A stretch of DNA of 64,000 bases from Syntrophales bacterium (GTDB taxonomy: Bacteria > Desulfobacterota > Syntrophia > Syntrophales > JADFWA01): NCBI GenBank assembly GCA_030655775.1, contig JAUSPI010000154.1, forward strand, positions 3,839 through 67,838. The letters are read 5' to 3'. Position 1 is the stretch's first letter. Each line of letters begins with the position of its first letter. The notes under the pieces were generated by a model. It was given only the letters and a program-made list of their open reading frames with translations. It did no database searches and was not told where the DNA came from. Positions 1,257 through 36,810 of this stretch are shown here, in pieces. Made by a program: the position numbers and the translations under genes.

Positions 1257-1742
1257 TCAGGCTCCTTTTTCCTCAACGAACAACTTCAAGAGATCAATCA
1301 GCAAAACCAGTGCAAGGACAACACAACCCAGGGCAACCCCGTAAGTGAAAGGATAGAAGATGATTCTCAAGGTTTCCGTTACCTCCCCCGTTTCCCAAAG
1401 GTTCGAGGCCACCGTAGCGATCTGCCAGGCGGCACCGGCGAAGAAGATCATACATATGGAGTAATTGATACCGCTCAATATCTTTCGGGTCTTTTCCGAG
1501 AATCGATTCACCAGTATATCTACTGCAACATGACCTCTCTTAACCTGTGTATAGCCAAGGGCAAATGCAACAACGATTGCTCCGAATAATCCCATGAGTT
1601 CAAAGGTGCCCTTAACCGGTACCCATACAAGCCTCAAAAATATATTGGAACAGGTTAGAAGTACCATCCCCACCAGAAATATACCGGCCATACAGACAAG
1701 TATCCGGTTCAAAAATCTGCTGATTTTATCCAGAGACTCCAT
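1257..1742 (-). CDS. dctQ: TRAP transporter small permease (DctQ family)
   Basis: 161-aa hydrophobic ORF with about 4 TM segments, tightly packed between a DctP-type binding protein and a DctM-type permease. Confidence 0.85.
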   Translation of the reverse strand: MESLDKISRFLNRILVCMAGIFLVGMVLLTCSNIFLRLVWVPVKGTFELMGLFGAIVVAFALGYTQVKRGHVAVDILVNRFSEKTRKILSGINYSICMIFFAGAAWQIATVASNLWETGEVTETLRIIFYPFTYGVALGCVVLALVLLIDLLKLFVEEKGA

Positions 1743-1751
1743 ATCCGCCTT

Positions 1752-2789
1752 CTACTTTTGATATTTTTTTGAACCGCGATCTTCCTTGGCCGCTTGTATG
1801 TCTCGCAGAATCGCCCTTGCCGGCAAGCCCTTAGCTTCGGCATCTTTGATCCACCTTTCGGTTATCGGACTCAGCAATTTATTCCACTCTGCCATCTCTT
1901 CTTCCGTCAATTCAATGATCTCGATATTATAATTCTTCTTAGACCATTCAATGGACTCATTTACGTGCCTATCCATGTAGTCGCCCGTCCAAAAAGCCTG
2001 TTCTTCTCCCAGAGCTTCCATCACCTTCTGTACGTCTTTTGGCAGGGAGTTCCATTTTTCGATGTTCATTACAACGGCGAAGGGATAAACAGGTCCATTA
2101 AATACCGTCACGTATCTGCAGGTTTCCGCATACTTGAAATCCATAAGGGTCTCAAGGGAAGATGCAGCGCCCTTCACAACACCCTTCTGAAGGGCTTCGG
2201 GGGTTTCCGACTGGGGCATGCCAACCGGAGTAGCTCCCAATGCCTTCAAAACCTGGGCAACCCCTCCGGATGCCCTCAGCTCCAGTCCTTTCAGGTCGTC
2301 TAAGTTCCTTACCGGTTTTTTTGCGTAGATGTTTGCCGGTGCACAGGTAAACATGGTAAGTACTTTAACCTTTGCGAATTCCTCCGGTTTATATTTCTTG
2401 TAAATATCCCATAGAGTGAGGCTGGCTGCTTTTGCATCCGGGAAGCCAACGGGCAACGCGGTCGCATTGGTTACCACAAACCTGCCCGGCTGATAGGCCA
2501 TGCACAGACAACCGATATCCGCCTGACCGGCGACGACACCATCGTACATGTTCTTGGCACCCAACAGGGTGCTGCCCGGAAAAGTATTGATTATAACTTT
2601 TCCGCCGGTGCGCTGCTCCACCTCTTTTTTCCATCTCTCCATCTGCACGCACGGGAATGTAGGAGCCGGCGGAAAATTAGCATAATTTAAAGTTATTGGC
2701 CCCGCTTTCACAGACACCGGAAATAAAGAACAGACAAACAACAGCATAACTATTAGTACCGTAATCCCTAAAAACCTTTTCTCTTTCAT
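1752..2789 (-). CDS. dctP: TRAP transporter periplasmic solute-binding protein (DctP family)
   Basis: 345 aa with an N-terminal signal peptide (MKEKRFLGITVLIVMLLFVCSLFPVSVKA). Size and sequence are typical of DctP. The start overlaps the iorB stop by 4 nt. Confidence 0.9.
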   Translation of the reverse strand: MKEKRFLGITVLIVMLLFVCSLFPVSVKAGPITLNYANFPPAPTFPCVQMERWKKEVEQRTGGKVIINTFPGSTLLGAKNMYDGVVAGQADIGCLCMAYQPGRFVVTNATALPVGFPDAKAASLTLWDIYKKYKPEEFAKVKVLTMFTCAPANIYAKKPVRNLDDLKGLELRASGGVAQVLKALGATPVGMPQSETPEALQKGVVKGAASSLETLMDFKYAETCRYVTVFNGPVYPFAVVMNIEKWNSLPKDVQKVMEALGEEQAFWTGDYMDRHVNESIEWSKKNYNIEIIELTEEEMAEWNKLLSPITERWIKDAEAKGLPARAILRDIQAAKEDRGSKKYQK

Positions 2790-3301
2790 TCTTCACCTCC
2801 ATAATATTTTAATCCCATTTCAAAACCTTTTAAGTTCATTTCAAGGCGGTCCGGCTTAGACAACTTTCTAATGGTTGTTTCCATCACTTCCTCATCACAA
2901 AAGAGGCTGCCTTCTTTCACCGTATATCCTAAAAGGATAAGATTCATGATGAGAAGTGATCCCAGCTCCTTTGCCATCCCGGTCGCATCAATGCTGTAAT
3001 ACTCTCCGGAGATGTCGGTATTTACAAATGACTTGCCTCCGGGCATTATGAAACTCCTGTAGATATCAAAGCTTGAACCGTCAAGAAATAATCCCACATC
3101 GCCCTGACCCATGCGGATCAAAGGACTTCTGAAAGACCCAACCTTAATATGGGAGACAACTGTTCCCCCTCTCATGGCCATGCCGTGCGTCTCCGAAGTC
3201 AGGACATCCATATTTTTTTCCACGGCCGCCTGTGCAAGAATCCTTGTCAGAAAGAGCACTCCCTGACCGCCGGTGCCGCTTATTATTATCTGTTGTTTCA
3301 T
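2786..3301 (-). CDS. iorB: indolepyruvate:ferredoxin oxidoreductase beta subunit
   Basis: 171 aa. N-terminal IIISGTGGQGVLF motif of the gamma-like OFOR domain. 4-nt overlap with iorA. Confidence 0.85.
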   Translation of the reverse strand: MKQQIIISGTGGQGVLFLTRILAQAAVEKNMDVLTSETHGMAMRGGTVVSHIKVGSFRSPLIRMGQGDVGLFLDGSSFDIYRSFIMPGGKSFVNTDISGEYYSIDATGMAKELGSLLIMNLILLGYTVKEGSLFCDEEVMETTIRKLSKPDRLEMNLKGFEMGLKYYGGEE

Positions 3302-5148
3302 TTATTGTCTCCTTCTTCCGCGACTATTGCCCCCGCAGGACACACGTGCTTACACACACCACACCCGATACAGATATTCTGATCGATTGAGAACCGCTTC
3401 CCCTCTGAATCACAAATAAGGGCCGGACACTCAAAGTTTTTCAGACAATACTCGCAGCCTGTACAATCTTCCGTTATTTTCATGGAATATACAGATTGTT
3501 TCTTTGCCGTCTCTCTGTTCAGGATGCACGGGTGTTTGGATATAATCACAGCAACGCCTCCATCCTCACCGCGGCAGTATCCATCGGCTTTCTTGAGATG
3601 GGAAGTAAACTTCTCAAAGTCATAAGGATCGCATTCTTTGAGAAATCTGACACCGCAGGCCCTCACCAGATCATGGATACGCACAGGCGTTCCTTTTGTC
3701 CCATCGGCCATAATTCCGACTTCAGGTGTCGGTTGATTACCGGTCATTGCTGTGGTGGAATTGTCCAGAATGACCAGGATAAATCGTGCTTTCTGAAATA
3801 CGGCATTGATAAGACCGGGAATGCCCGCATGGAAGAAGGTGGAATCACCTATGGTCACAACAATAGCGGGAACTTCTCCGCCATCCCGGGCGTACGCGTG
3901 GTAAAAACCCGCCCCCTGGCTTATGCATGCACCCATACAGTGACAGGTATCTACGGCACCAAGATTCATGCCGAGCGTATAACAACCTATATCGCTGGGG
4001 AAAATTCCCTTGGGAAACGTTTTTTTGATCGCGTAAAATGCCGCCCGGTGAGGACACCCCGGACATAGAGTCGGTCTCTTTCCTTTTATCTGCGCTGGAG
4101 AACCGCCTGTTTCCAGAGGTATACTCAGAAATTTCTTCAACACATCCTGAATGATATCCGGCGTCAACTCCCCCTGGCCAGGAATTAGCTTTGAATTTCT
4201 TCCATAAATCCCCGTATTCGTCAGTTGCATCTCTATTGTGGGATAGGTCTCCTCAATGACGAGTATTTTTCCGTATTCGGAACTTATTTTTTGAATGAAA
4301 CTCCTGTTTAAGGGATACGGCATGGTAACCTGGAAAAGGTCTATTTTCCCCAGAAAGCCCATATCTTCCAGGAGATCGCAGGTATGTGCGAAGGCTGCAC
4401 CGGAAGATATGATGCAGTGTTTGTCCAGCGATCCATCACCGGCAATGAGTAACGGCGAAAAAGCTTCTTCATCCGATATGTCTTCAATTTTTTCATTTAA
4501 GAGGCGATGGAGCTCATATAGAAATTGCGGTGTCGCAACCCAGCGTCCCGGATTTTTCTCGAAACTAACTTTCCTCTCCAATTTTTCAGGGGTGAAACAG
4601 GGGACATTCTGTCTGGCATGGCATATACGGGTAGTAGGGCGGATCATTACGGGAAGTTCATATTTTTCAGACAGCTCAAAGGCCTTTTTGACCATCTCTT
4701 TTGCCTCTCCGGGACTGGCAGGATCAAGGACGGGTATCTTGGCGAAGCGCGCAAAAAAGCGGCTGTCCTGCTCCGTCTGGGAGCTGTGAGGGCCTGGATC
4801 ATCAGCCACAATAACAACAAAACCCCCTTTAATTCCAATGTAAGCGGAACGCATAAAGGGATCGGATGCCACATTTAAACCGACCTGCTTCATGGCTACG
4901 GCAGATCTCTTACCGGTATAGCTGTTTGCCAACGCCACCTCATAAGCTACCTTCTCATTGACCGACCATTCTATGTGCATCCCGGTTTCTGTCTCACTGG
5001 AAAAATTGATGACTGATGCGAGAATCTCGGAGGCCGGCGTACCCGGGTAAGAAGCGGCGAGTGAGCATCCGGCTTCGACCAACCCCCTGCCGATCGCTTC
5101 ATTACCCATGAGTATTCTCTGCTCTGTTCGATCCGTGTTTTGACCCAT
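3298..5148 (-). CDS. iorA: indolepyruvate:ferredoxin oxidoreductase alpha subunit
   Basis: N-terminal MGNEAIGRGLVEAGC..SYPGTPASEI, TPP motif region GDSTFFHAG, and two C-terminal CxxCxxCxxxCP ferredoxin motifs. Start set to ATG 5148 (GAGGA 6 nt upstream); the track start at 5154 is TTG. Confidence 0.9.
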   Translation of the reverse strand: MGQNTDRTEQRILMGNEAIGRGLVEAGCSLAASYPGTPASEILASVINFSSETETGMHIEWSVNEKVAYEVALANSYTGKRSAVAMKQVGLNVASDPFMRSAYIGIKGGFVVIVADDPGPHSSQTEQDSRFFARFAKIPVLDPASPGEAKEMVKKAFELSEKYELPVMIRPTTRICHARQNVPCFTPEKLERKVSFEKNPGRWVATPQFLYELHRLLNEKIEDISDEEAFSPLLIAGDGSLDKHCIISSGAAFAHTCDLLEDMGFLGKIDLFQVTMPYPLNRSFIQKISSEYGKILVIEETYPTIEMQLTNTGIYGRNSKLIPGQGELTPDIIQDVLKKFLSIPLETGGSPAQIKGKRPTLCPGCPHRAAFYAIKKTFPKGIFPSDIGCYTLGMNLGAVDTCHCMGACISQGAGFYHAYARDGGEVPAIVVTIGDSTFFHAGIPGLINAVFQKARFILVILDNSTTAMTGNQPTPEVGIMADGTKGTPVRIHDLVRACGVRFLKECDPYDFEKFTSHLKKADGYCRGEDGGVAVIISKHPCILNRETAKKQSVYSMKITEDCTGCEYCLKNFECPALICDSEGKRFSIDQNICIGCGVCKHVCPAGAIVAEEGDNK

Positions 5149-5170
5149 GCTCAATCCTCATTTTCGCCAC

Positions 5171-5210
5171 AAAAAAAAGCCGTGGACATCGAAGGTTGTC
5201 CACGGCTTTT
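5171..5210 (-). terminator. intrinsic terminator/attenuator hairpin immediately upstream of iorA
   Basis: 14-bp stem AAAAGCCGTGGACA/TGTCCACGGCTTTT (5175-5188/5197-5210) with an 8-nt loop. It is followed on the minus strand by T8 and lies about 25 nt before the iorA RBS. Confidence 0.6.
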
Positions 5211-5228
5211 CATGTACGCTCTGTCTAT

Positions 5229-5312
5229 TTAAAATTCTCGCGGCCGGCGAACAAACCTCCCCCTTATATATATCCACTGCCACCACCAGAATTTTAAACT
5301 ATTATTTGCCAT
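5229..5312 (-). CDS. candidate Trp-rich leader peptide (27 aa) of the iorAB-dctPQM operon
   Basis: My translation gives MANNSLKFWWWQWIYIRGRFVRRPREF, with three consecutive TGG codons. It lies between a promoter-like site and the terminator. No convincing SD precedes the ATG. Confidence 0.4.
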   Translation of the reverse strand: MANNSLKFWWWQWIYIRGRFVRRPREF

Positions 5313-5358
5313 GTTCTTATTATGGATTACTATTACCTTGTTCTCTCAGTACTTCAGA

Positions 5359-5386
5359 AATATATTAACTTCAAACAAAAAGTCAA
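5359..5386 (-). promoter_or_regulatory. sigma70-like promoter for the iorA leader
   Basis: Minus strand TTGACT (5386..5381), 16-nt spacer, TATATT (5364..5359). Confidence 0.45.
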
Positions 5387-5397
5387 GCAAAACTTTT

Positions 5398-5508
5398 GTG
5401 AATCTCCCCGCCCACAGGGCGGGGCTTCCCGGTAAGGAATATGTTTGTTTTATATTGCGCCCCTTACCCCGCCTACAAGGCGAGGCTTGCGGGTGCACTC
5501 CCGATCAG
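5398..5508 (+). repeat. ~110-bp double-hairpin intergenic repeat, full copy (orientation A)
   Basis: Sequence GTGAATCTCCCCGCCCACAGGGCGGGGCTTCCCGGTAAGGAATATGTTTGTTTTATATTGCGCCCCTTACCCCGCCTACAAGGCGAGGCTTGCGGGTGCACTCCCGATCAG. It overlaps the paaK stop codon. See the other copies below. Confidence 0.9.
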
Positions 5509-6794
5509 TCCCTGTTATCGAACAGTCTCTTGGTTTTTTTCGCTGTTCTGGGAAGAGTATGATAGTCAACTATTTCTACCTTTCCACTTACCAGTATTTT
5601 CTTCCTGATATTGCTTTCTATCTTCCCGGCAAGCACGTCATCTCCTTTTGAGTCTCTCCCCATCTCTCTTTCCACCTTTACGGTCAGGTAGTCCTTCCCG
5701 TCATCCCCACGGTCGAGATGAATCTGATATTCGCTGCCGATACCATCCTGCCTGGAAAGTATCTCATCTATATTGCTGGGGTAGAGGTTGACCCCTCGGA
5801 TAATAAACATATCATCAGAGCGCCCCAATATCTTATCATGACGGGGCAGGAGAGATCCGCATGGACATTCTCCTTCTACCGATCTCGTCAGATCCCTTGA
5901 TCGATACCTGATAAGAGGCACCCCTTCTTTTCTAAGTGTCGTGTACACCATCTCTCCGACCTCACCTTCAGGAACAGGTTCCAGAGTTTCCGGAGCTAGC
6001 AGCTCCATGATATAATAATCAGCCCAGTAATGAATTCCCGTATGATAAACACAATCCAGACCGGTCCCCGGACCATAAAGCTCCGTCAGGCCTGGAATGT
6101 CGAAGGCATGCTCCACACCCAACAGCCCTTTAATCTTTTTTGTTGTGGCATCACTTGACCGTTCAGCCCCAAAAATGACCTTTTTTACACTGAGCTTATC
6201 ATTGAGCCCCCGTCTGTCCACCTCTTCAGCCAGTAACAATGCCATCGATGCGGTGGAACATATCACCGTTGTCTGAAAATCGATCAAAAATTGCAGCTGC
6301 ATATCAATGTTTCCCGGCCCGGCCGGTATGGCAAACGCCCCGAATTTCTCACAGCCGAGCTGAAAACCCACACCCGCGGTCCATACGCCGTATCCTACGC
6401 ATATCTGAACCCTGTCTTCTTCCGTCAGCTCGGCCATCTCGTAACACCTCGCAAACATATCAGCCCAGTCGTTCACATCCTTTTTTGTGTAAACCATAAC
6501 CTTTCTTTTTCCCGTCGTTCCCGTCGATGCGTGCATCCTTACAACACTTTCAAACGGCACGGATATGAGCGGCCAGGGATAGTTGTCTTGCAGGTCCTTC
6601 GCGGTTACAAATGGCAGCCTCTTGAGATCTTCAAGGCTCTTAATGTCATCCGGTTTAACACCTGCCTCCTCAAATTTTTTGCGATAAAATGCCGATCCAT
6701 AATAGGCGTGGTTAACCGTCCACTTCAATCCTGACAACTGCAGAGCTTCCAGTTCTTCTTTGTTCGTAAATTTCGGCATAAATGTTTTTTTCAA
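5505..6794 (-). CDS. paaK: phenylacetate-CoA ligase family (aryl-acid CoA ligase, PaaK / F390-synthetase type)
   Basis: 429 aa adenylate-forming enzyme, with MHASTGTTGKRKVMVYT and further family-typical blocks. TTG start 8 nt after GGAGGG. Confidence 0.85.
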   Translation of the reverse strand: MKKTFMPKFTNKEELEALQLSGLKWTVNHAYYGSAFYRKKFEEAGVKPDDIKSLEDLKRLPFVTAKDLQDNYPWPLISVPFESVVRMHASTGTTGKRKVMVYTKKDVNDWADMFARCYEMAELTEEDRVQICVGYGVWTAGVGFQLGCEKFGAFAIPAGPGNIDMQLQFLIDFQTTVICSTASMALLLAEEVDRRGLNDKLSVKKVIFGAERSSDATTKKIKGLLGVEHAFDIPGLTELYGPGTGLDCVYHTGIHYWADYYIMELLAPETLEPVPEGEVGEMVYTTLRKEGVPLIRYRSRDLTRSVEGECPCGSLLPRHDKILGRSDDMFIIRGVNLYPSNIDEILSRQDGIGSEYQIHLDRGDDGKDYLTVKVEREMGRDSKGDDVLAGKIESNIRKKILVSGKVEIVDYHTLPRTAKKTKRLFDNRD

Positions 6795-7101: not shown

Positions 7102-7212
7102 TTGACCGGGAGCGCATACCGCAAGCCCCGCCTTGTAGGCGGGGCAAGGGGCGCAATATAAAACAACATATTCCTTACCGGGAAGCCCCGCCCTGCGGCC
7201 GTGGAGCTTCAC
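7102..7212 (-). repeat. ~110-bp double-hairpin repeat, full copy (orientation B)
   Basis: Reverse complement of the 5398-5508 and 36700-36810 element. One hairpin is partly degenerate (CCCCGCCCTGCGGCCGTGGAG). Confidence 0.9.
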
Positions 7213-7324
7213 ATTTAGGATTGTTAGAAGAGTAAAAAATCGACCTTGATTTTTAAAGGTTGCCAATGTTATATAGTTTTTCTTTAAAGCTACAAATCTT
7301 TTGGGTTGAGAAAGGAGCGTGGTC

Positions 7325-22432: not shown

Positions 22433-23038
22433 ATGACACAAAACGAAGATATCAAATCGGGAGCCGTAAAGGGATTTAAAATTGGCGGCAAAGTAAGAGA
22501 ACTCAGGCAAAAAAGACATTACACCATGAAGGACCTGTCTATAAAAACCGATCTGTCAAAAACTCTTTTATCTGAAATAGAAAATGATGAGGTTGTTCCA
22601 CCCGTGGCAACTCTGCTCAAGCTGGCCAAAGCTCTTGGTGTAGGAATGACTTTTTTCTTTGAGGACGTGGAAATCAGTGAAAAAATTTCTGTTACCCGTC
22701 CTGGTGAGCGGATACAGCTCAAACGCAGACCGCACCATCATGAAGGGGAAGTCGATTACGTTTACGAAATCCTTGAAACGAAAAAACCTGACAAGCGTAT
22801 GTTACCCTTGCTGGTAGAGTTTCAGCCCATGGATAGAAGTGACATGATTTTTACGAACCACGAGGGAGAAGAATTCTTATATCTCATCGAAGGAACACTT
22901 GAATTTCGCACCGATGATCGAATGGAGGTACTCCAGCCGGGCGATTCCCTCTATTTTGAATCGGATATAAACCACAGCTTTCGTGCTCTGGATGAAAAAC
23001 AGGCAAGGGCTGTTGTTGTGGTCTGGAGTAAAACATAA
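22433..23038 (+). CDS. XRE-family HTH transcriptional regulator with C-terminal cupin domain
   Basis: HTH block LRQKRHYTMKDLSIKTDLSKTLLSEIEN. Cupin block GEEFLYLIEGTLEF...GDSLYFESDINHSF. Confidence 0.8.
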   Translation: MTQNEDIKSGAVKGFKIGGKVRELRQKRHYTMKDLSIKTDLSKTLLSEIENDEVVPPVATLLKLAKALGVGMTFFFEDVEISEKISVTRPGERIQLKRRPHHHEGEVDYVYEILETKKPDKRMLPLLVEFQPMDRSDMIFTNHEGEEFLYLIEGTLEFRTDDRMEVLQPGDSLYFESDINHSFRALDEKQARAVVVVWSKT

Positions 23039-23054
23039 AAAGGAACTGATAATT

Positions 23055-23618
23055 ATGCTCGAAATCCGTTTTCATGGACGTGGTGGACAGGGAACCGTTG
23101 TAGCCACAATCCTGCTGGCCAAGGCCTTTTTTGAGGCAGGCTATCAAGTCCAAAGCTTCCCTTTTTTTGGAATAGAAAGAAGGGGGGCTCCGGTCGAGGC
23201 ATATTTAAGACTGAACAAAAAAGATATTTTAATAAGGTCGAATGTTTACAATCCCGATCACGTCGTTGTTCAGGACCGAACTCTTATCCAGAGCATTGAT
23301 TTTACAAGAGGACTTCAGCCAGGAGGATGGATCCTGATCAACAGTCCGGCTCCCCCTGCTAATTTGACCCCCTTTGCGGGTTTTCGGTTGGCTTTCGTCG
23401 ATGCCAGCCATATTGCAAGAAATCATAAACTGGGAACCCGTACCTCTCCTATCGTTAACACATCGATGATTGGCGCTTTTGCCAGCATTTTAGACATGCC
23501 ACCGATGGAAACTGTCGTTTCCGCCATCAGAGAAGAAATTACGATTGAGGCCGAACAAAACATCCAGGCAGCGGAAGATGCATACAGGGAAGTCCGAATT
23601 CTCGGAATGATTGAGTAA
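23055..23618 (+). CDS. 2-oxoacid:ferredoxin oxidoreductase gamma subunit
   Basis: Starts MLEIRFHGRGGQGTVVATILLA. ATG 23055 chosen over the upstream track start. Confidence 0.85.
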   Translation: MLEIRFHGRGGQGTVVATILLAKAFFEAGYQVQSFPFFGIERRGAPVEAYLRLNKKDILIRSNVYNPDHVVVQDRTLIQSIDFTRGLQPGGWILINSPAPPANLTPFAGFRLAFVDASHIARNHKLGTRTSPIVNTSMIGAFASILDMPPMETVVSAIREEITIEAEQNIQAAEDAYREVRILGMIE

Positions 23619-23629
23619 GGATCAGAAAA

Positions 23630-25423
23630 GTGACAGAAAAGAAGGAAATTATTGAAGCAATTCCATTGTTAGTACCACACTCCTACCTAACTACGGAAAG
23701 CAATAAGACGGGCTCGTGGCGCTTTCTAAAGCCCCGTTATGAAGAAAAGACTTCTCCATGCAGCACTGCCTGTCCTGCCGGTGAGGACATCGGGCAAATT
23801 GAAATGCTGACAGCCCGGGGTTTATTCAAGGAGGCCTGGGAAACCATACTCAGAGAAAACCCCTTTCCCGGCGTCTGTGGACGTGTCTGCTATCATCCCT
23901 GTGAAAAAATATGCAATCGAGAAGAATTTGATAAAGCTATTGCCATTCATAGTATCGAGCGTTTTCTCGCCGATACTGCCATTCGGAACGATTTAAAACC
24001 CCTTCTGGAACGTAATCCTGCCAGGAAGCAGAAAATAGCGGTAATAGGTGCCGGTCCCAGCGGCCTTGCGGCGGCCTATTTCTTGACCCTCCTCGGTTAT
24101 ACCTGCGATGTCTTCGAGGCTATGCCTGAACCCGGTGGAATTCTCCGGTGGGGAATACCTCCTTACCGCCTTCCCCTTTCTGTTCTTTAAAACGAAATTG
24201 CCCTGATTGAAGATCATGGCGTCCGGATACATACCGGGAAGCACATTTCACGGCACTTTCTGGAAGAGGCCCGGAATAATTACAATGCCATCTTTCTGGG
24301 TTGCGGACATTCCCGTACGGCCCGGTTGAACATCCCGGGAGAAGATACTGAGGGTGTTGAGGATGGGTTCAAATTTCTGCTAAGTATCCGTCAGAATAAA
24401 AACCCTTCATCCAATGGATCGATAGCTGTTATTGGAGGCGGCAACACAGCTATTGATGTAGCCCGGAGCATCGTGCGACTTGGCGGAAAGGCTCTTATAA
24501 TATACAGACGCAGGCGTCAGGATATGCCTGCCTTCGAACAGGATGTGCAGATGGCACTTGAAGAAGGAGTTGAGATTAAAGAACTTCTTACACCCGCAAA
24601 GATCATATATGATAATGAAGAGCTTGTTTTGACTTTACGGCAGATGAAAGTTGTTGGTGAAGATATTCAGGGAAGAGCTTCTGTTGAACCCGACGGTAAA
24701 AACCCTGAAGAAATCAGGGTTAAACGAATTTTCAAGGCTATTGGTAAAGGGATAGCCGAACCCTGGCATAGTCCCCCAGAAGAAGGGGAAGGAATTTTGA
24801 GGATGAACAACTCTGTTCTGGCATACCGGCATCAATGTCCCACTCTCGTGTTTGGGGGCGACCTGACAAATGAGACAAAGAGTGTCGTCCATGCTGTGGC
24901 TTCCGGCAAGGAGGCAGCTATAGCTCTTGATATATTCTTTAGGGAAGGATTTGATGCCATCAGGCCGACGCTAAAGACCTGTATGGTGGGAAATGGCGCT
25001 TCCCCTCTCTCTATGGAAGTTTACATGGGGGGACCTCGCCGTTTAAGAAGCCCCCATATTGTCACTTATGAAGAAATTAATACCGACTACTTTCAGCTCA
25101 CCGGCAAAGTCTCTCAACCACGTCTTTTAATAGAAGAACGCCTCCGGACATTTGAAGAAGTAGACCTCAAAATTTCGGCGCATCTGGCCACCAGAGAGGC
25201 AGGACGCTGCTTTAACTGCGGTCTCTGTAGTCAGTGTGAGAACTGCTTTGTGTTCTGTCCGGATTTATCAGTAATACGTGATAACAGTTCCCAGGGACGT
25301 CATATCAATTATGATTATTGTAAGGGGTGCGGTGTCTGTGTGGTGGAATGCCCCCGCAACGCCATGGTACTCGAGGAGGAAAGTTATGAAGAAAGTCCTG
25401 GAGGGAAGTCAGGCAGTAGCTGA
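23630..25423 (+). pseudogene. GltD/SudA-like NAD(P)H-flavin oxidoreductase fused to a PorD-like 2x[4Fe-4S] domain, interrupted by one in-frame TAA (24188-24190)
   Basis: ORFs 23630-24190 and 24326-25423 are in the same frame. The 45 codons between them continue the family pattern (NEIALIEDHGVRIHTGK...YNAIFLGCG...IPGED). Motifs: CGRVCYHPCE, IAVIGAGPSGLAAAYFL, AVIGGGNTAIDVA, and C-terminal CFNCGLCSQCENCFVFCP...CKGCGVCVVECP. Confidence 0.7.
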
Positions 25424-26564
25424 AGCGGTTCGCCTGGCAAAAGTCAGCGTTATTTCTGCTTATCCTATCACTCCGCAAACCCATATCGTCGAGTTCCTTT
25501 CAGAGTATTGTTCAGATGGCAGATTGGGCGCACGTTTTTTGCGTGTGGAGAGTGAACATTCTGCTCTGGCTGCTCTGATTGGAGCAGCGAGCAGCGGGGT
25601 GAGGACATTTACCGCCACTTCCTCACAGGGGCTGGCCCTGATGCACGAACTCCTCCACTGGACATCGGGTGCAAGGCTTCCGGTTGTAATGGTCGAAGTA
25701 AATCGGGCACTTGCTCCCGGCTGGAATATCTGGACCGACCAGACCGACAGCCTGGCACAACGGGACACGGGCTGGATACAGCTCTATTGTGAAAACAGTC
25801 AGGAAACTCTGGATACCACTCTTCAGGCCTTCCGCCTGGCGGAGATGGTTAATCTGCCGGTCATGGTAGTTTTAGATGCGTTTTATCTCTCACACACTTA
25901 TGAACCGGTTGATGTACCGGAACAGGAACTGGTCGACTGCTTCCTCCCTCCGTACGACCCAAAATTTCAGGTTGACACAAAAGATCCGCGTGCGTTTGGT
26001 TCATTAGTTCTGCCGAATGCTTACATGGAAATGCGCCATAATATTGCAATGGCGATGGAGGAAGTTCTGTCTATATTTCCAGAAATCGAGGAAGATTTTG
26101 CCGGAATATTTGGGCGTCGTTATGGGTCAGTAGAACCGATTGCCTGTGATGATGCGGAAATCATTTTGGTAACGTCCGGAACGGTCACGAGTACGAGCCG
26201 TCAGGTAATTCAAGGCTTGCGTGCAAAGGGAGAAAAAGTCGGGCTCCTGAAAGTAAAACTTTTCCGTCCCTTTCCCTCGGAGATGTTTCGCCGGATACTC
26301 AGACCGGCAAAAAAAGTCGCCGTGATTGACCGCAATTTCTCATTCGGGGCAAGTGGTATATTTGCCCAGGAATTGCGAGCCGCTCTTTGCAACCTTCCCG
26401 GCCATCCTCCGGTTTTCGGTTATATTGCGGGAATCGGCGGACGTGACGTGACAACGGACATATTAGAGAACATATACTGGCAAACCAAAAAGAATGAGGT
26501 TCCGGAAAAAGAAAGTATATGGATGGGACTTCAGGAGGTGGATCATGCAACTGAAAGTTCCTGA
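25386..26564 (+). CDS. 2-oxoacid:ferredoxin oxidoreductase alpha subunit
   Basis: MKKVLEGSQAVAEAVRLAKVSVISAYPITPQT is a typical PorA/VorA N-terminus. GAGGAGG RBS. Overlaps the upstream gene. Confidence 0.9.
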   Translation: MKKVLEGSQAVAEAVRLAKVSVISAYPITPQTHIVEFLSEYCSDGRLGARFLRVESEHSALAALIGAASSGVRTFTATSSQGLALMHELLHWTSGARLPVVMVEVNRALAPGWNIWTDQTDSLAQRDTGWIQLYCENSQETLDTTLQAFRLAEMVNLPVMVVLDAFYLSHTYEPVDVPEQELVDCFLPPYDPKFQVDTKDPRAFGSLVLPNAYMEMRHNIAMAMEEVLSIFPEIEEDFAGIFGRRYGSVEPIACDDAEIILVTSGTVTSTSRQVIQGLRAKGEKVGLLKVKLFRPFPSEMFRRILRPAKKVAVIDRNFSFGASGIFAQELRAALCNLPGHPPVFGYIAGIGGRDVTTDILENIYWQTKKNEVPEKESIWMGLQEVDHATESS

Positions 26565-27426
26565 ACGTGAGTACATGTACCCGGGACATGTGGCCTGTCC
26601 CGGATGCGGGGCCGCAATTGCCATGAGATTGTTCATGAAGGTGATGGGTGAAAAGACCATAATTGTCCTTCCTGCCTGTTGTTGGTCCATTATAGCGGGC
26701 GCCTATCCTCAGTCTACATTGCAGGTTCCGATAATCCATAGTGCCTTTGAAACCGGAGGCGCCGTGGCCAGTGGTGTGCGTGCGGCATTGGATATTAAGG
26801 GAGATACCGAAACCACCGTCGTTACATGGGCCGGCGATGGAGGAACTTTTGATATCGGCTTTCAGGCACTCAGCGGCGCCGTTGAGCGTAATGAAGATTT
26901 TATCTATGTATGCTATGACAATGAAGCCTATATGAATACCGGCATTCAGCGCAGTTCTTCTACCCCTTACGGTGCGTGGACCACCACAACACCGGGACAG
27001 GAATGGAAAAAGATGCGGAAAAAGAATATTGTAGAGGCTCTGGTAGCCCATCGCATTCCTTATGCTGCCACGGCTAATATTGCCTTCCCGGAAGATATGA
27101 TTCGAAAGGTTCAAAAAGCCAAAGAAATAAAGGGAGCGCGCTTTCTCCATATTTTTGCCAGTTGCCCTACCGGCTGGCGTATTCCATCTGAAATATCCGT
27201 CAAGATTGCCCGAATGGCTGTCCAGACCAATATTTTTCCCCTTTATGAAGTCGAAGGCGGTGTAAAATACACGATAAACTACACTCCCAAGGAGTATCCG
27301 GTAAGAGAGTATTTCAAACTCCAGGGACGATTCCAGCATCTCACTGACAATGATTTAGCGCAGATTCAGGAAATGGTCAACGAGGACTGGGAACTCCTGC
27401 TCCGTAAGGCGGGTGAACTGTCTTAA
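26545..27426 (+). CDS. 2-oxoacid:ferredoxin oxidoreductase beta (TPP-binding) subunit
   Basis: GHVACPGCGAAIA and GDGGTFDIGFQALSG...NEAYMNTG TPP motifs. ATG 26545 follows AGGAGG. Confidence 0.9.
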   Translation: MQLKVPEREYMYPGHVACPGCGAAIAMRLFMKVMGEKTIIVLPACCWSIIAGAYPQSTLQVPIIHSAFETGGAVASGVRAALDIKGDTETTVVTWAGDGGTFDIGFQALSGAVERNEDFIYVCYDNEAYMNTGIQRSSSTPYGAWTTTTPGQEWKKMRKKNIVEALVAHRIPYAATANIAFPEDMIRKVQKAKEIKGARFLHIFASCPTGWRIPSEISVKIARMAVQTNIFPLYEVEGGVKYTINYTPKEYPVREYFKLQGRFQHLTDNDLAQIQEMVNEDWELLLRKAGELS

Positions 27427-32597: not shown

Positions 32598-32612
32598 TAT
32601 TTTTACCTCCAT

Positions 32613-32655
32613 CTAAAAATAAAAAGGCCATGGGCTTTGCCGCCCATGGCCTTTT
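32613..32655 (-). terminator. intrinsic terminator/attenuator immediately upstream of leuA
   Basis: Minus strand GGCCATGGGC, 6-nt loop, GCCCATGGCC, followed by TTTTTATTTTT. Confidence 0.65.
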
Positions 32656-32678
32656 AGTACTGTCTTGTTTTTATTAGT

Positions 32679-32792
32679 TCATCCTCTTATACAAACGGCG
32701 GGCGGCGGGTATAAGACACCTGTAAGGCTCAACAAGCACAAAAGCAGAAGGCCGTTTAAGTTAGATAGGTCTCTCTTCACACCACACATCAT
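32679..32792 (-). CDS. candidate Leu-rich leader peptide (37 aa) of leuA
   Basis: My translation gives MMCGVKRDLSNLNGLLLLCLLSLTGVLYPPPAVCIRG. 10 of 37 residues are Leu, four of them consecutive. Confidence 0.45.
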   Translation of the reverse strand: MMCGVKRDLSNLNGLLLLCLLSLTGVLYPPPAVCIRG

Positions 32793-32825
32793 CTTATAAA
32801 AATCCCCCGACATAAAAGTCTCAGC

Positions 32826-32854
32826 AGATTAAAATAAAAGAATATGGATGTCAA
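32826..32854 (-). promoter_or_regulatory. sigma70-like promoter of the leuA leader
   Basis: Minus strand TTGACA (32854..32849), 17-nt spacer, TAATCT (32831..32826). Directly after the cimA stop. Confidence 0.5.
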
Positions 32855-34438: not shown

Positions 34439-34456
34439 TAGTATTAACCTCCCTCA

Positions 34457-34499
34457 AACTAAAAAATCCGTTACCAGTGAACCTGATAACGGATTTTTA
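34457..34499 (-). terminator. intrinsic terminator/attenuator immediately upstream of cimA
   Basis: Minus strand 12-bp stem ATCCGTTATCAG/CTGGTAACGGAT (one G-U pair), 5-nt loop, then TTTTTT. The GAGGGAGG RBS follows. Confidence 0.65.
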
Positions 34500-34528
34500 T
34501 GCTAAACAGTTAAAACACTACACCATTA

Positions 34529-34591
34529 TCAGGTCTCCCATGCATTGGGCCTAATTATCCCGCATATAATGGCAATAGTATTTTTAAACAT
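34529..34591 (-). CDS. candidate Ile-rich leader peptide (20 aa) of cimA
   Basis: My translation gives MFKNTIAIICGIIRPNAWET. Five Ile fall within eight residues. Confidence 0.45.
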   Translation of the reverse strand: MFKNTIAIICGIIRPNAWET

Positions 34592-34716
34592 GTTGATCTT
34601 TTTATCCTCTGCTTCTAAATATATTTCACAATATAATTTCATTTTCCGTTTGTCAAACAAAAAATAGGTTTCGTGTTATAATATATGGATAATTCTCTAT
34701 CAAAGAGGTGTGCATT

Positions 34717-36699: not shown

Positions 36700-36810
36700 G
36701 TGAAGCTCCCCGCTCACAGGGCGAGGCTTCCCGGTAAGGAACATGTTTGTTTTATATTGCGCCCCTTGCCCCGCCTACAAGGCGGGACTTGCGGGTGCGC
36801 TCCCGGTCAC
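36700..36810 (+). repeat. ~110-bp double-hairpin repeat, full copy (orientation A)
   Basis: Sequence GTGAAGCTCCCCGCTCACAGGGCGAGGCTTCCCGGTAAGGAACATGTTTGTTTTATATTGCGCCCCTTGCCCCGCCTACAAGGCGGGACTTGCGGGTGCGCTCCCGGTCAC. Confidence 0.9.

Follow-up and report, generated by a model that had tools for sequence, protein, structure and literature searches.

Why would the genes for indolepyruvate:ferredoxin oxidoreductase (IOR) and for a tripartite ATP-independent periplasmic (TRAP) transporter be preceded by a short open reading frame (ORF) with a run of Trp codons and by an intrinsic terminator? The question is raised by the minus strand of a 64,000-nucleotide (nt) stretch of DNA from a Syntrophales bacterium (assembly GCA_030655775.1, contig JAUSPI010000154.1, positions 3,839 to 67,838), hereafter called the window. 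A first-pass annotation, made by a model from the letters alone, had described there a candidate Trp-sensing attenuator in front of an iorAB-dctPQM operon, with a gene for a PaaK-type aryl-acid-CoA ligase further upstream. We followed up this proposal computationally in the window and in iorA loci of other genomes. We predict, with high confidence, that the element is a ribosome-mediated leader-peptide attenuator, which would read the charging of tRNA-Trp and gate transcription of iorA-iorB-dctP-dctQ-dctM. The genes of the operon would probably make Trp from scavenged indole acids instead of degrading it.

Leader and alternative structures in the window

All elements that had been listed on the minus strand were present, including the promoter-like site, which matches the consensus at 10 of 12 positions, and the 27-codon ORF at 5312..5229 (Table 1). 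In the closest relatives of the window (loci L001-L003) a -35 hexamer, TTGACT or TTGACC, is kept at equal distance. Within the ORF, a run of three TGG codons (TGGTGGTGG, 5288..5280) is followed by a fourth TGG at 5276..5274. One copy of TGGTGGTGG is present in the 64-kb window, where 0.44 would be expected. Because this count is not significant on its own, the case rests on structure and conservation, including the covariance-model match described below.

The terminator consists of a 5' arm (AAAAGCCGTGGACA, 5210..5197), a loop (ACCTTCGA, 5196..5189) and a 3' arm (TGTCCACGGCTTTT, 5188..5175), all on the minus strand, and of eight T residues at 5178..5171, the first four of which are used by the four A-U pairs of the stem. 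A hairpin is indeed present where a 14-bp GC-rich stem had been annotated, but the stem really comprises 10 G/C-rich pairs and 4 A-U pairs that draw on the T run. Its energy was -18.4 kcal/mol for the GC stem and -22.9 kcal/mol with the A-U pairs. An automated terminator scan missed this main hairpin and returned a weaker one inside the leader; the main hairpin was read directly from the sequence and refolded. The start of iorA, which had been put about 25 nt beyond the hairpin, is as close as claimed, with the exact arrangement being GAGGA at 5159..5155 and an ATG at 5148, 22 nt after the end of the T run.

The 204-nt leader folded at -61.5 kcal/mol, with a z score of -4.8 against shuffled sequences, into two hairpins, the 1:2 hairpin and the terminator. 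In the 1:2 hairpin, leader nucleotides 14-42, which hold the Trp (W) codons, pair with nucleotides 60-86, stop codon included; folded alone, this hairpin reached -27.4 kcal/mol (z -3.6). The antiterminator duplex between regions 2 and 3 had an energy of -22.1 kcal/mol (z = -3.7 versus shuffles) and covers the whole GC arm and the loop. A pairing of leader codons with the 5' terminator arm had been proposed and was found, but it is about twice as long as described and takes in the terminator loop. With these pairings the window has the four regions arranged as in a classical attenuator.

Equilibrium folding with masked ribosome footprints cannot discriminate between the states of such a leader, and a nascent-transcript version of the simulation can do so only partly. 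In the latter, a ribosome stalled at the W codons left 100% of the window's terminator arm paired with region 2, and mean arm occupancy was 0.77 with the ribosome stalled versus 0.51 with the ribosome at the stop codon.

Conservation of the leader across iorA loci

A scan for IorA with one genome per species gave 80 loci, mostly from metagenome-assembled genomes (MAGs) of Syntrophales, Smithella and Desulfobaccales. A short ATG-initiated ORF with a W run was present upstream of iorA in 33 of them, and a pattern scan of metagenomes yielded 22 matches, made up of 14 further leaders and 8 chance matches within coding sequence. The short ORF and its W codons are therefore conserved in orthologous leaders, the very check that the first-pass annotation had suggested, and its proposal of a Trp-codon attenuator before iorAB-dctPQM is borne out. 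The W runs in the 33 leaders were mostly WWW or WWWW, with WW in three and W-x-W-x-W in L001; in the leader of this locus (2594-2701), whose IorA is 95% identical to that of the window, the run is interrupted and reads TGG TGC TGG CAG TGG (W-C-W-Q-W). The leader ORF of L001 may start 8 codons earlier.

The architecture around the W run was equally regular. The leader ORF lay 104-155 nt upstream of the iorA ATG in all but five of the 33 loci, and farther away in those five. Each of the 33 had a terminator (-14 to -38 kcal/mol, T run of 4-9, mostly 5 or more), placed 4-48 nt before the iorA ATG in loci without insertions, and in every one of them region 2 was complementary to the terminator 5' arm. 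The leaderless loci among the 80 had no comparable terminator at that position. The start of region 2 fell 16-27 nt past the final W codon, immediately beyond a stalled ribosome, in all but two loci; in the Smithella type its end lay 1-4 nt ahead of the stop codon, where a terminating ribosome would cover it. Four of the five loci with the larger distance carry GC-hairpin repeats between terminator and iorA, which widen the gap to 150-380 nt and leave the leader in place (Table 1).

A covariance model was built solely from 14 leaders of the Smithella type, without the window sequence and its close relatives. The model matched the window at 5171..5323 on the minus strand with 80.6 bits (E = 6.5e-15); in the four remaining subfamilies it recovered all 19 loci with a leader, and it gave no match in those leaderless loci that were searched. 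In an alignment of 17 AT-richer leaders the terminator was 97% paired with 3 compensatory pairs, and the antiterminator core was 97.5% paired with 2 (C-G/U-A and U-A/C-G). The 1:2 helix was 81% paired; in the Smithella type GAACAGA pairs with TCTGTTC. For most of the AT-richer subfamily, the antiterminator z scores lay between -3 and -6, and RNAalifold with a simulated ribosome stalled on the W run returned a consensus antiterminator in every subfamily. In a cross-pairing control, which keeps natural composition, a locus's own region 2 ranked in the best three against the region 2 of other subfamilies in 27/33 loci. The nucleotides of regions 1, 2 and 3 are conserved within subfamilies, and the subfamilies use different sequences for the same switch logic.

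Could the ORF have arisen by chance, with the hairpin serving as the terminator of paaK and iorA being transcribed from its own promoter? The insignificance of a single TGGTGGTGG in 64 kb and a window leader without a Shine-Dalgarno (SD) sequence would suit such an account. Against this, the ORF, the W run, the antiterminator and the terminator are conserved together in the 33 genome loci and the 14 metagenome contigs, the element was found by a model that never saw the subfamily of the window, the gap from the T run to the iorA ATG is only 22 nt, and the same element stands before dctP, where no paaK terminator is needed. We consider this explanation barely conceivable.

Between subfamilies the leader peptides share the W run only, as illustrated by MKAFNRLSTGWWWWQKISGGGLFGA, MDLQIRKSNLWWWRSSHRARGVRV and MLDRTADPTIFYATAWWWIMTSSGLRLVH. 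Phe or Tyr near the W run was not conserved in the orthologous leaders, so the signal is Trp alone, and the earlier suggestion that F and Y form part of it was dropped. Judged from the sequences, conservation of the W run alone is the signature of regulatory codons and not of a functional or arrest peptide. This bears on a catabolic role of the operon, in which Trp or indolepyruvate would be converted to indoleacetyl-CoA and a TnaC-like arrest peptide would sense free Trp and induce the genes at Trp excess. IOR operons are usually annotated as serving aromatic amino-acid catabolism, and TnaC is an example of a leader peptide able to induce an operon for Trp catabolism. An arrest peptide, however, depends on a conserved sequence, whereas here the peptide outside the W run is not conserved between subfamilies and the RNA pairing partners are. 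The strong intrinsic terminator with its complementary region 2 follows biosynthetic-type logic, and there is no sign of a Rho-dependent spacer in the 22 nt from the T run to iorA. A catabolic operon of this kind is very improbable.

Other classes of leader were also considered. A search of Rfam gave no leader match at E up to 10 in 4800..5900 and none at gathering score window-wide. A T-box riboswitch was rejected, there being no Rfam match and the conserved in-frame W-codon ORF explaining the element instead, and a TnaC-type arrest peptide was rejected on the two grounds that only the W run is conserved across subfamilies and that the terminator is intrinsic.

An SD-like motif, GGGGGAGG, lies within the leader ORF of the window (5256-5263, minus strand), immediately 5' of region 2. 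The two AT-richer subfamilies retain a G-rich motif of SD type here, in most cases GGGGGAGG. The copy in the window pairs with the loop of the terminator; the 2:3 pairing of the Smithella type is not obviously dependent on the motif. The motif touches on the possibility that, besides its cis role, the released leader RNA of ~150-170 nt or the 27-amino-acid peptide acts in trans. For this there is a precedent in rnTrpL/peTrpL of Sinorhizobium, and conservation of GGGGGAGG at 5263..5256 in two subfamilies exceeds what 2:3 pairing needs; the sequence of the peptide, however, is not conserved, and no target was encountered, none having been looked for. We judge a function in trans to be quite improbable; it would be compatible with the cis mechanism.

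Direction of the pathway and proposed mechanism

IorA of the window scored 662.6 bits with the TIGR03336 equivalog model, above the cut-off of 650.9. The PaaK protein scored 401.8 bits with TIGR02155, below the cut-off of 646.3, and matched phenylacetate-CoA ligases in the PDB at E 4e-102. In 24 of the 33 leader loci, paaK lies upstream with the same orientation, usually as the gene immediately upstream, and several of the others have too little upstream DNA to judge. Where downstream DNA suffices, the order is mostly paaK and then, set apart from it, leader-iorA-iorB-dctP-dctQ-dctM. Because paaK lies upstream of the leader, and of the promoter-like site as well, the attenuator cannot control it, and we abandoned the claim that Trp limitation switches on the PaaK-type ligase.

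Leaderless loci have no adjacent dctPQM, apart from L040, whose upstream part is cut off, and L065, in which it lies 3 kb away, and in a neighbour-joining tree the leader-bearing IorA proteins fall in one half, with a large leaderless clade separate from them. In four D-type loci the attenuator stands before iorAB alone and no TRAP genes follow. In two Smithella MAGs, dctPQM forms a separate convergent unit with its own full leader, antiterminator and terminator (Table 1); this second attenuator is preceded by a gene for a pair of ACT domains and by a second PaaK paralogue (41% identity). Among the 14 metagenome leaders, 9 precede iorA, 4 precede dctP and 1 lies at a contig end. TGG runs of three or more in all 80 loci and in the metagenome scan pointed to no targets besides iorA and dctP. 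No trp genes were found in the 64-kb window.

What the transporter carries is suggested by its solute-binding protein. DctP of the window is 56% identical over its full length to PDB 4N6D and 48% identical, again over its full length, to the chain of 4PGN/4PGP/4NAP (E 6.5e-102), which we take to be Dde_0634. Presumably 4PGN holds Dde_0634 with indole pyruvate and 4NAP holds it with D-Trp, where the literature says only 'indole acids' and a D-amino acid. Dde_0634 of Oleidesulfovibrio alaskensis was reported to bind indole-3-acetate (PMC9973260), 'indole acids' are among the TRAP ligands found by Vetting 2015 according to an excerpt of PMC5812351, and 4NAP contains a D-amino acid (PMC10443332). 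By this close homology, DctP of the window is a putative indole-acid-binding TRAP protein. In a protein search toward the Desulfovibrio loci of the crystallised binding proteins, the 120 matches listed were all close relatives with 76-95% identity.

[quoted passage not shown] Since the switch would turn on at a shortage of charged tRNA-Trp, the operon presumably supplies Trp. In Methanococcus maripaludis, aromatic amino acids are documented to be formed from aryl acids by a route that depends on IOR (Porat 2004, as summarised in PMC4162585). On this regulatory logic and the homologies we regard as reasonably probable a route in which indole acids are taken up by the TRAP transporter, activated to CoA esters, reductively carboxylated by IOR and transaminated to Trp. 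The anabolic salvage that had been suggested from the outset has been strengthened by the homology of DctP and by the attenuator that dctPQM itself carries, though it is not proven by them.

The same genes could be used in another way. With the attenuator real, the TRAP transporter might mainly import indole-3-pyruvate, which would be transaminated directly, and IOR would serve 2-oxoacid balance or detoxification, or a side route. The presumed indole pyruvate in 4PGN and the fact that dctPQM can carry its own attenuator independently of iorAB agree with this, but iorAB is the invariant regulated unit, as the four D-type loci without TRAP genes downstream illustrate. Moreover, co-induction of an enzyme that destroys the precursor would be poor logic unless IOR runs in reverse, and a PaaK-type ligase gene adjoins nearly every unit. 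We consider import of indolepyruvate as the main function to be unlikely, and prefer reductive carboxylation by IOR.

The preferred reading, an attenuator that turns on Trp formation, can be set out as follows. Transcription would begin upstream of the leader, likely at the TTGACT/TATATT site or else by read-through from paaK. With the ribosome absent or gone, region 1 would pair with region 2, and the 3:4 hairpin with its eight T residues would end transcription 22 nt ahead of iorA. At a shortage of charged tRNA-Trp, the ribosome would stall on TGG TGG TGG (CAG) TGG and keep region 1 open; region 2, about 18 nt past the last W codon and just outside the ribosome, could then pair with the emerging terminator arm and loop, and this 2:3 pairing would let RNA polymerase read through. 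With Trp plentiful, the ribosome would reach the stop codon and cover region 2, completely in most orthologues and partially in the window, and the terminator would form. The TRAP transporter would import indole-3-acetate and/or indole-3-pyruvate, the adjacent PaaK-type AMP-forming ligase would activate the indole acid to its CoA ester, and IOR, running as a reductive carboxylase, would yield indolepyruvate for transamination to Trp.

Several observations weigh against this reading. Mutually exclusive terminator and antiterminator pairings, which the first-pass annotation had marked for a folding test, exist and co-vary, yet equilibrium folding gave the terminator as the minimum free energy (MFE) structure in every simulated state, that with a stalled ribosome included. 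Because the terminator is always the equilibrium MFE structure, the switch must be kinetic; in the E. coli trp leader, likewise, the 3:4 hairpin is more stable than the 2:3 hairpin. The idea that a ribosome at the stop codon masks the antiterminator fits the Smithella type, with its gap of 1-4 nt, but applies only in part to the window, whose stop codon lies 11 nt past region 2: a ribosome there masks only the 3' third of region 2, and in the nascent-transcript simulation 70% of the terminator arm was still able to pair upstream. In the GC-rich subfamilies the antiterminator was no better than shuffled sequences (z 0 to -2), and its candidacy there is argued by the cross-pairing control only. 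The ATG of the window leader has no SD sequence, as had been noted correctly, and neither have L002 and L003; most orthologous leaders do have one (AAGGTG, AAGGA or GAGG, 6-10 nt upstream of the start). The promoter upstream of the window leader is a putative one, a consensus match only, and a sigma-70 search upstream of all leaders found, among the matches listed, no promoter conserved beyond the closest relatives. The anabolic direction would follow from regulatory logic and homology only, and downstream of dctM or iorB in nine loci there were unrelated genes only, with no aminotransferase or trp gene.

If our reading is right, a textbook device of biosynthetic operons is coupled here to an enzyme whose routine annotation is catabolic, together with an indole-acid transporter. 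The polarity of such a switch, which turns on as charged tRNA-Trp runs short, provides sequence-level evidence for the direction of the pathway: in a whole clade of syntrophs that are uncultured or grow slowly, it points to IOR acting as a reductive carboxylase that forms Trp. The W leader could also serve as an annotation marker that separates the anabolic, TRAP-linked IorA clade from leaderless IorA paralogues. The old observation that anaerobes make aromatic amino acids from aryl acids would become directly testable in methanogenic consortia of environmental importance, in which aromatic amino acids come at a high cost and auxotrophy is widespread (PMC5663940). That carboxylation of indoleacetate by IOR is the principal, and in some Syntrophales lineages the sole, source of Trp is a bolder proposal and an unlikely one; were it true, these syntrophs would depend on indole acids released by the community, and the attenuator would replace, or work beside, the trp-operon attenuator as the control point for Trp.

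Feature coordinates, other elements of the window and known systems

Table 1. Features of the leader, its neighbouring genes and related elements. Positions are those of the window unless a locus is named; (-) denotes the minus strand.
Feature	Position	Strand	Sequence, basis or remark
Promoter-like site	5359..5386	(-)	TTGACT-16 nt-TATATT; consensus match 10/12
Leader ORF, 27 codons and stop	ATG 5312 to TAA 5231..5229	(-)	MANNSLKFWWWQWIYIRGRFVRRPREF; read from sequence
Regulatory codons, proposed ribosome stall site	5274..5288	(-)	TGG TGG TGG CAG TGG (WWWQW)
Region 1, 5' strand of the 1:2 hairpin, holds the W codons	5271..5299	(-)	MFE folds
Region 2, alternative partner of region 1 or region 3	5242..5261	(-)	GGGAGGTTTGTTCGCCGGCC
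Spacer from stop codon to hairpin, 18 nt	5228..5211	(-)	
Region 3, GC part of the terminator 5' arm and loop	5190..5206	(-)	GCCGTGGACAACCTTCG
Intrinsic terminator (regions 3:4)	5171..5210	(-)	10 G/C-rich pairs and A-U extension, 8-nt loop, T8
iorA ribosome-binding site (RBS) and start	5146..5159	(-)	GAGGA 5159..5155, ATG 5148..5146
iorA, IOR alpha, first gene predicted to be regulated	3298..5148	(-)	Pfam POR_N, TPP_enzyme_C, Fer4
iorB, IOR beta	2786..3301	(-)	Pfam POR; best NCBIfam IOR beta models, all under cut-off
dctP, TRAP solute-binding protein	1752..2789	(-)	Pfam DctP
dctQ	1257..1742	(-)	Pfam DctQ
dctM	from about 1253, past the window start	(-)	read from sequence; synteny match in other loci
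paaK, PaaK-family aryl-acetate-CoA ligase	5505..6794	(-)	Pfam AMP-binding, AMP-binding_C_2
Second WWWW leader copy, directly upstream of separate dctPQM	L014 12716-12857; L015 12627-12767	(-)	also L082, L083, L088, L097
GC-hairpin insertions	L011 5660-5975; L014 5740-5975; L041 3815-4090; L044 5895-5985		
Smithella-type leader regions			region 1 GAACAGA, region 2 TCTGTTCAC, region 3 GTGAACAGA, region 4 TGTTCAC
GC-richer-type leader regions			region 1 AACCGCAC, region 2 GTGCGGGTCT, region 3 CCATGGGCGCAC

The paaK gene of the window is flanked by two copies, in inverted orientation, of a ~100-nt repeat of two GC-rich hairpins, which resembles repetitive extragenic palindromes or miniature inverted-repeat transposable elements (5397-5492 and 7119-7213); a third, partial copy lies elsewhere in the window (about 36717-36739). 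L001, the relative with 95% identity, lacks the copy that lies between paaK and the leader promoter.

Two further candidate attenuators lie on the minus strand of the window. A candidate Ile leader (34455-34612) precedes a cimA/leuA-like gene: its ORF (34591..34529), translated as MFKNTIAIICGIIRPNAWET, has Ile at 5 of 8 codons, and a 16-bp hairpin with a T run follows it, about 20 nt ahead of the RBS and the ATG (34438). This leader folded at -47.2 kcal/mol (z -4.6), and CCUGAUAAUGG is the nearly exact complement of the terminator arm CCGUUAUCAGG. A candidate Leu leader (32612-32830) lies between the cimA-like gene and leuA and surfaced as a weak match to the covariance model (27 bits, E 0.0016). 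Its ORF ends in KRDLSNLNGLLLLCLLSLTGVLYPPPAVCIRG before the stop codon and has the Leu-codon stretch NLNGLLLLCLLSLTGVL; the terminator, GGCCATGGGC-ggcaaa-GCCCATGGCC with a T run, stands just before the leuA RBS. With Trp, Ile and Leu leaders in one 64-kb window, Syntrophales probably use ribosome-mediated attenuation broadly.

Elsewhere, a second 2-oxoacid:ferredoxin oxidoreductase cluster on the plus strand (22433-27426; POR gamma, Fer4_20/NAD-binding, POR_N and TPP_enzyme_C) adjoins a gene for a helix-turn-helix-cupin regulator. The segment 48779-55239 is likely a mobile or defence island, with an IS200-like Y1 transposase, a protein with an HSDR_N domain, an AIPR protein and a phage-type integrase.

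Among known systems, the closest in design is the E. coli trpL leader (Rfam Trp_leader, RF00513), which likewise has a short ORF with tandem Trp codons, 1:2, 2:3 and 3:4 pairings, an intrinsic terminator just before the first structural gene and, as predicted here, read-through on Trp-tRNA shortage. The Syntrophales leader differs from it in having 3-4 consecutive W codons where trpL has 2, in its greater length (mostly 24-29 codons, up to 39 by the first in-frame ATG), in its host lineage (Syntrophales, Thermodesulfobacteriota) and in its targets, iorAB and a TRAP transporter instead of trpEDCBA. The trpL element of Sinorhizobium meliloti (rnTrpL/peTrpL) is also a ribosome-dependent Trp attenuator with a short terminated RNA, but it precedes trpE(G) and has documented trans functions. 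The tnaC-tnaAB system shares a Trp-containing leader peptide before a Trp-related, non-biosynthetic operon; TnaC depends on Rho and on a conserved peptide and responds to excess Trp with induction, whereas the Syntrophales element has an intrinsic terminator and an antiterminator and, as predicted, the opposite polarity. The M. maripaludis route uses the same enzyme family, IOR, in the anabolic direction from aryl acids, as far as the relevant part of PMC4162585 describes it; it is archaeal, that account describes for it neither leader-peptide control nor a dedicated TRAP transporter, and the direction in Syntrophales would follow from regulation instead. In a literature search that spanned not all journals we found no description linking IOR or iorAB to a leader peptide or attenuator, and Rodionov 2004, on delta-proteobacteria, makes no mention of an IOR leader or attenuator. 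The mechanism is classical; the target operon, the lineage and the physiological implication are new.

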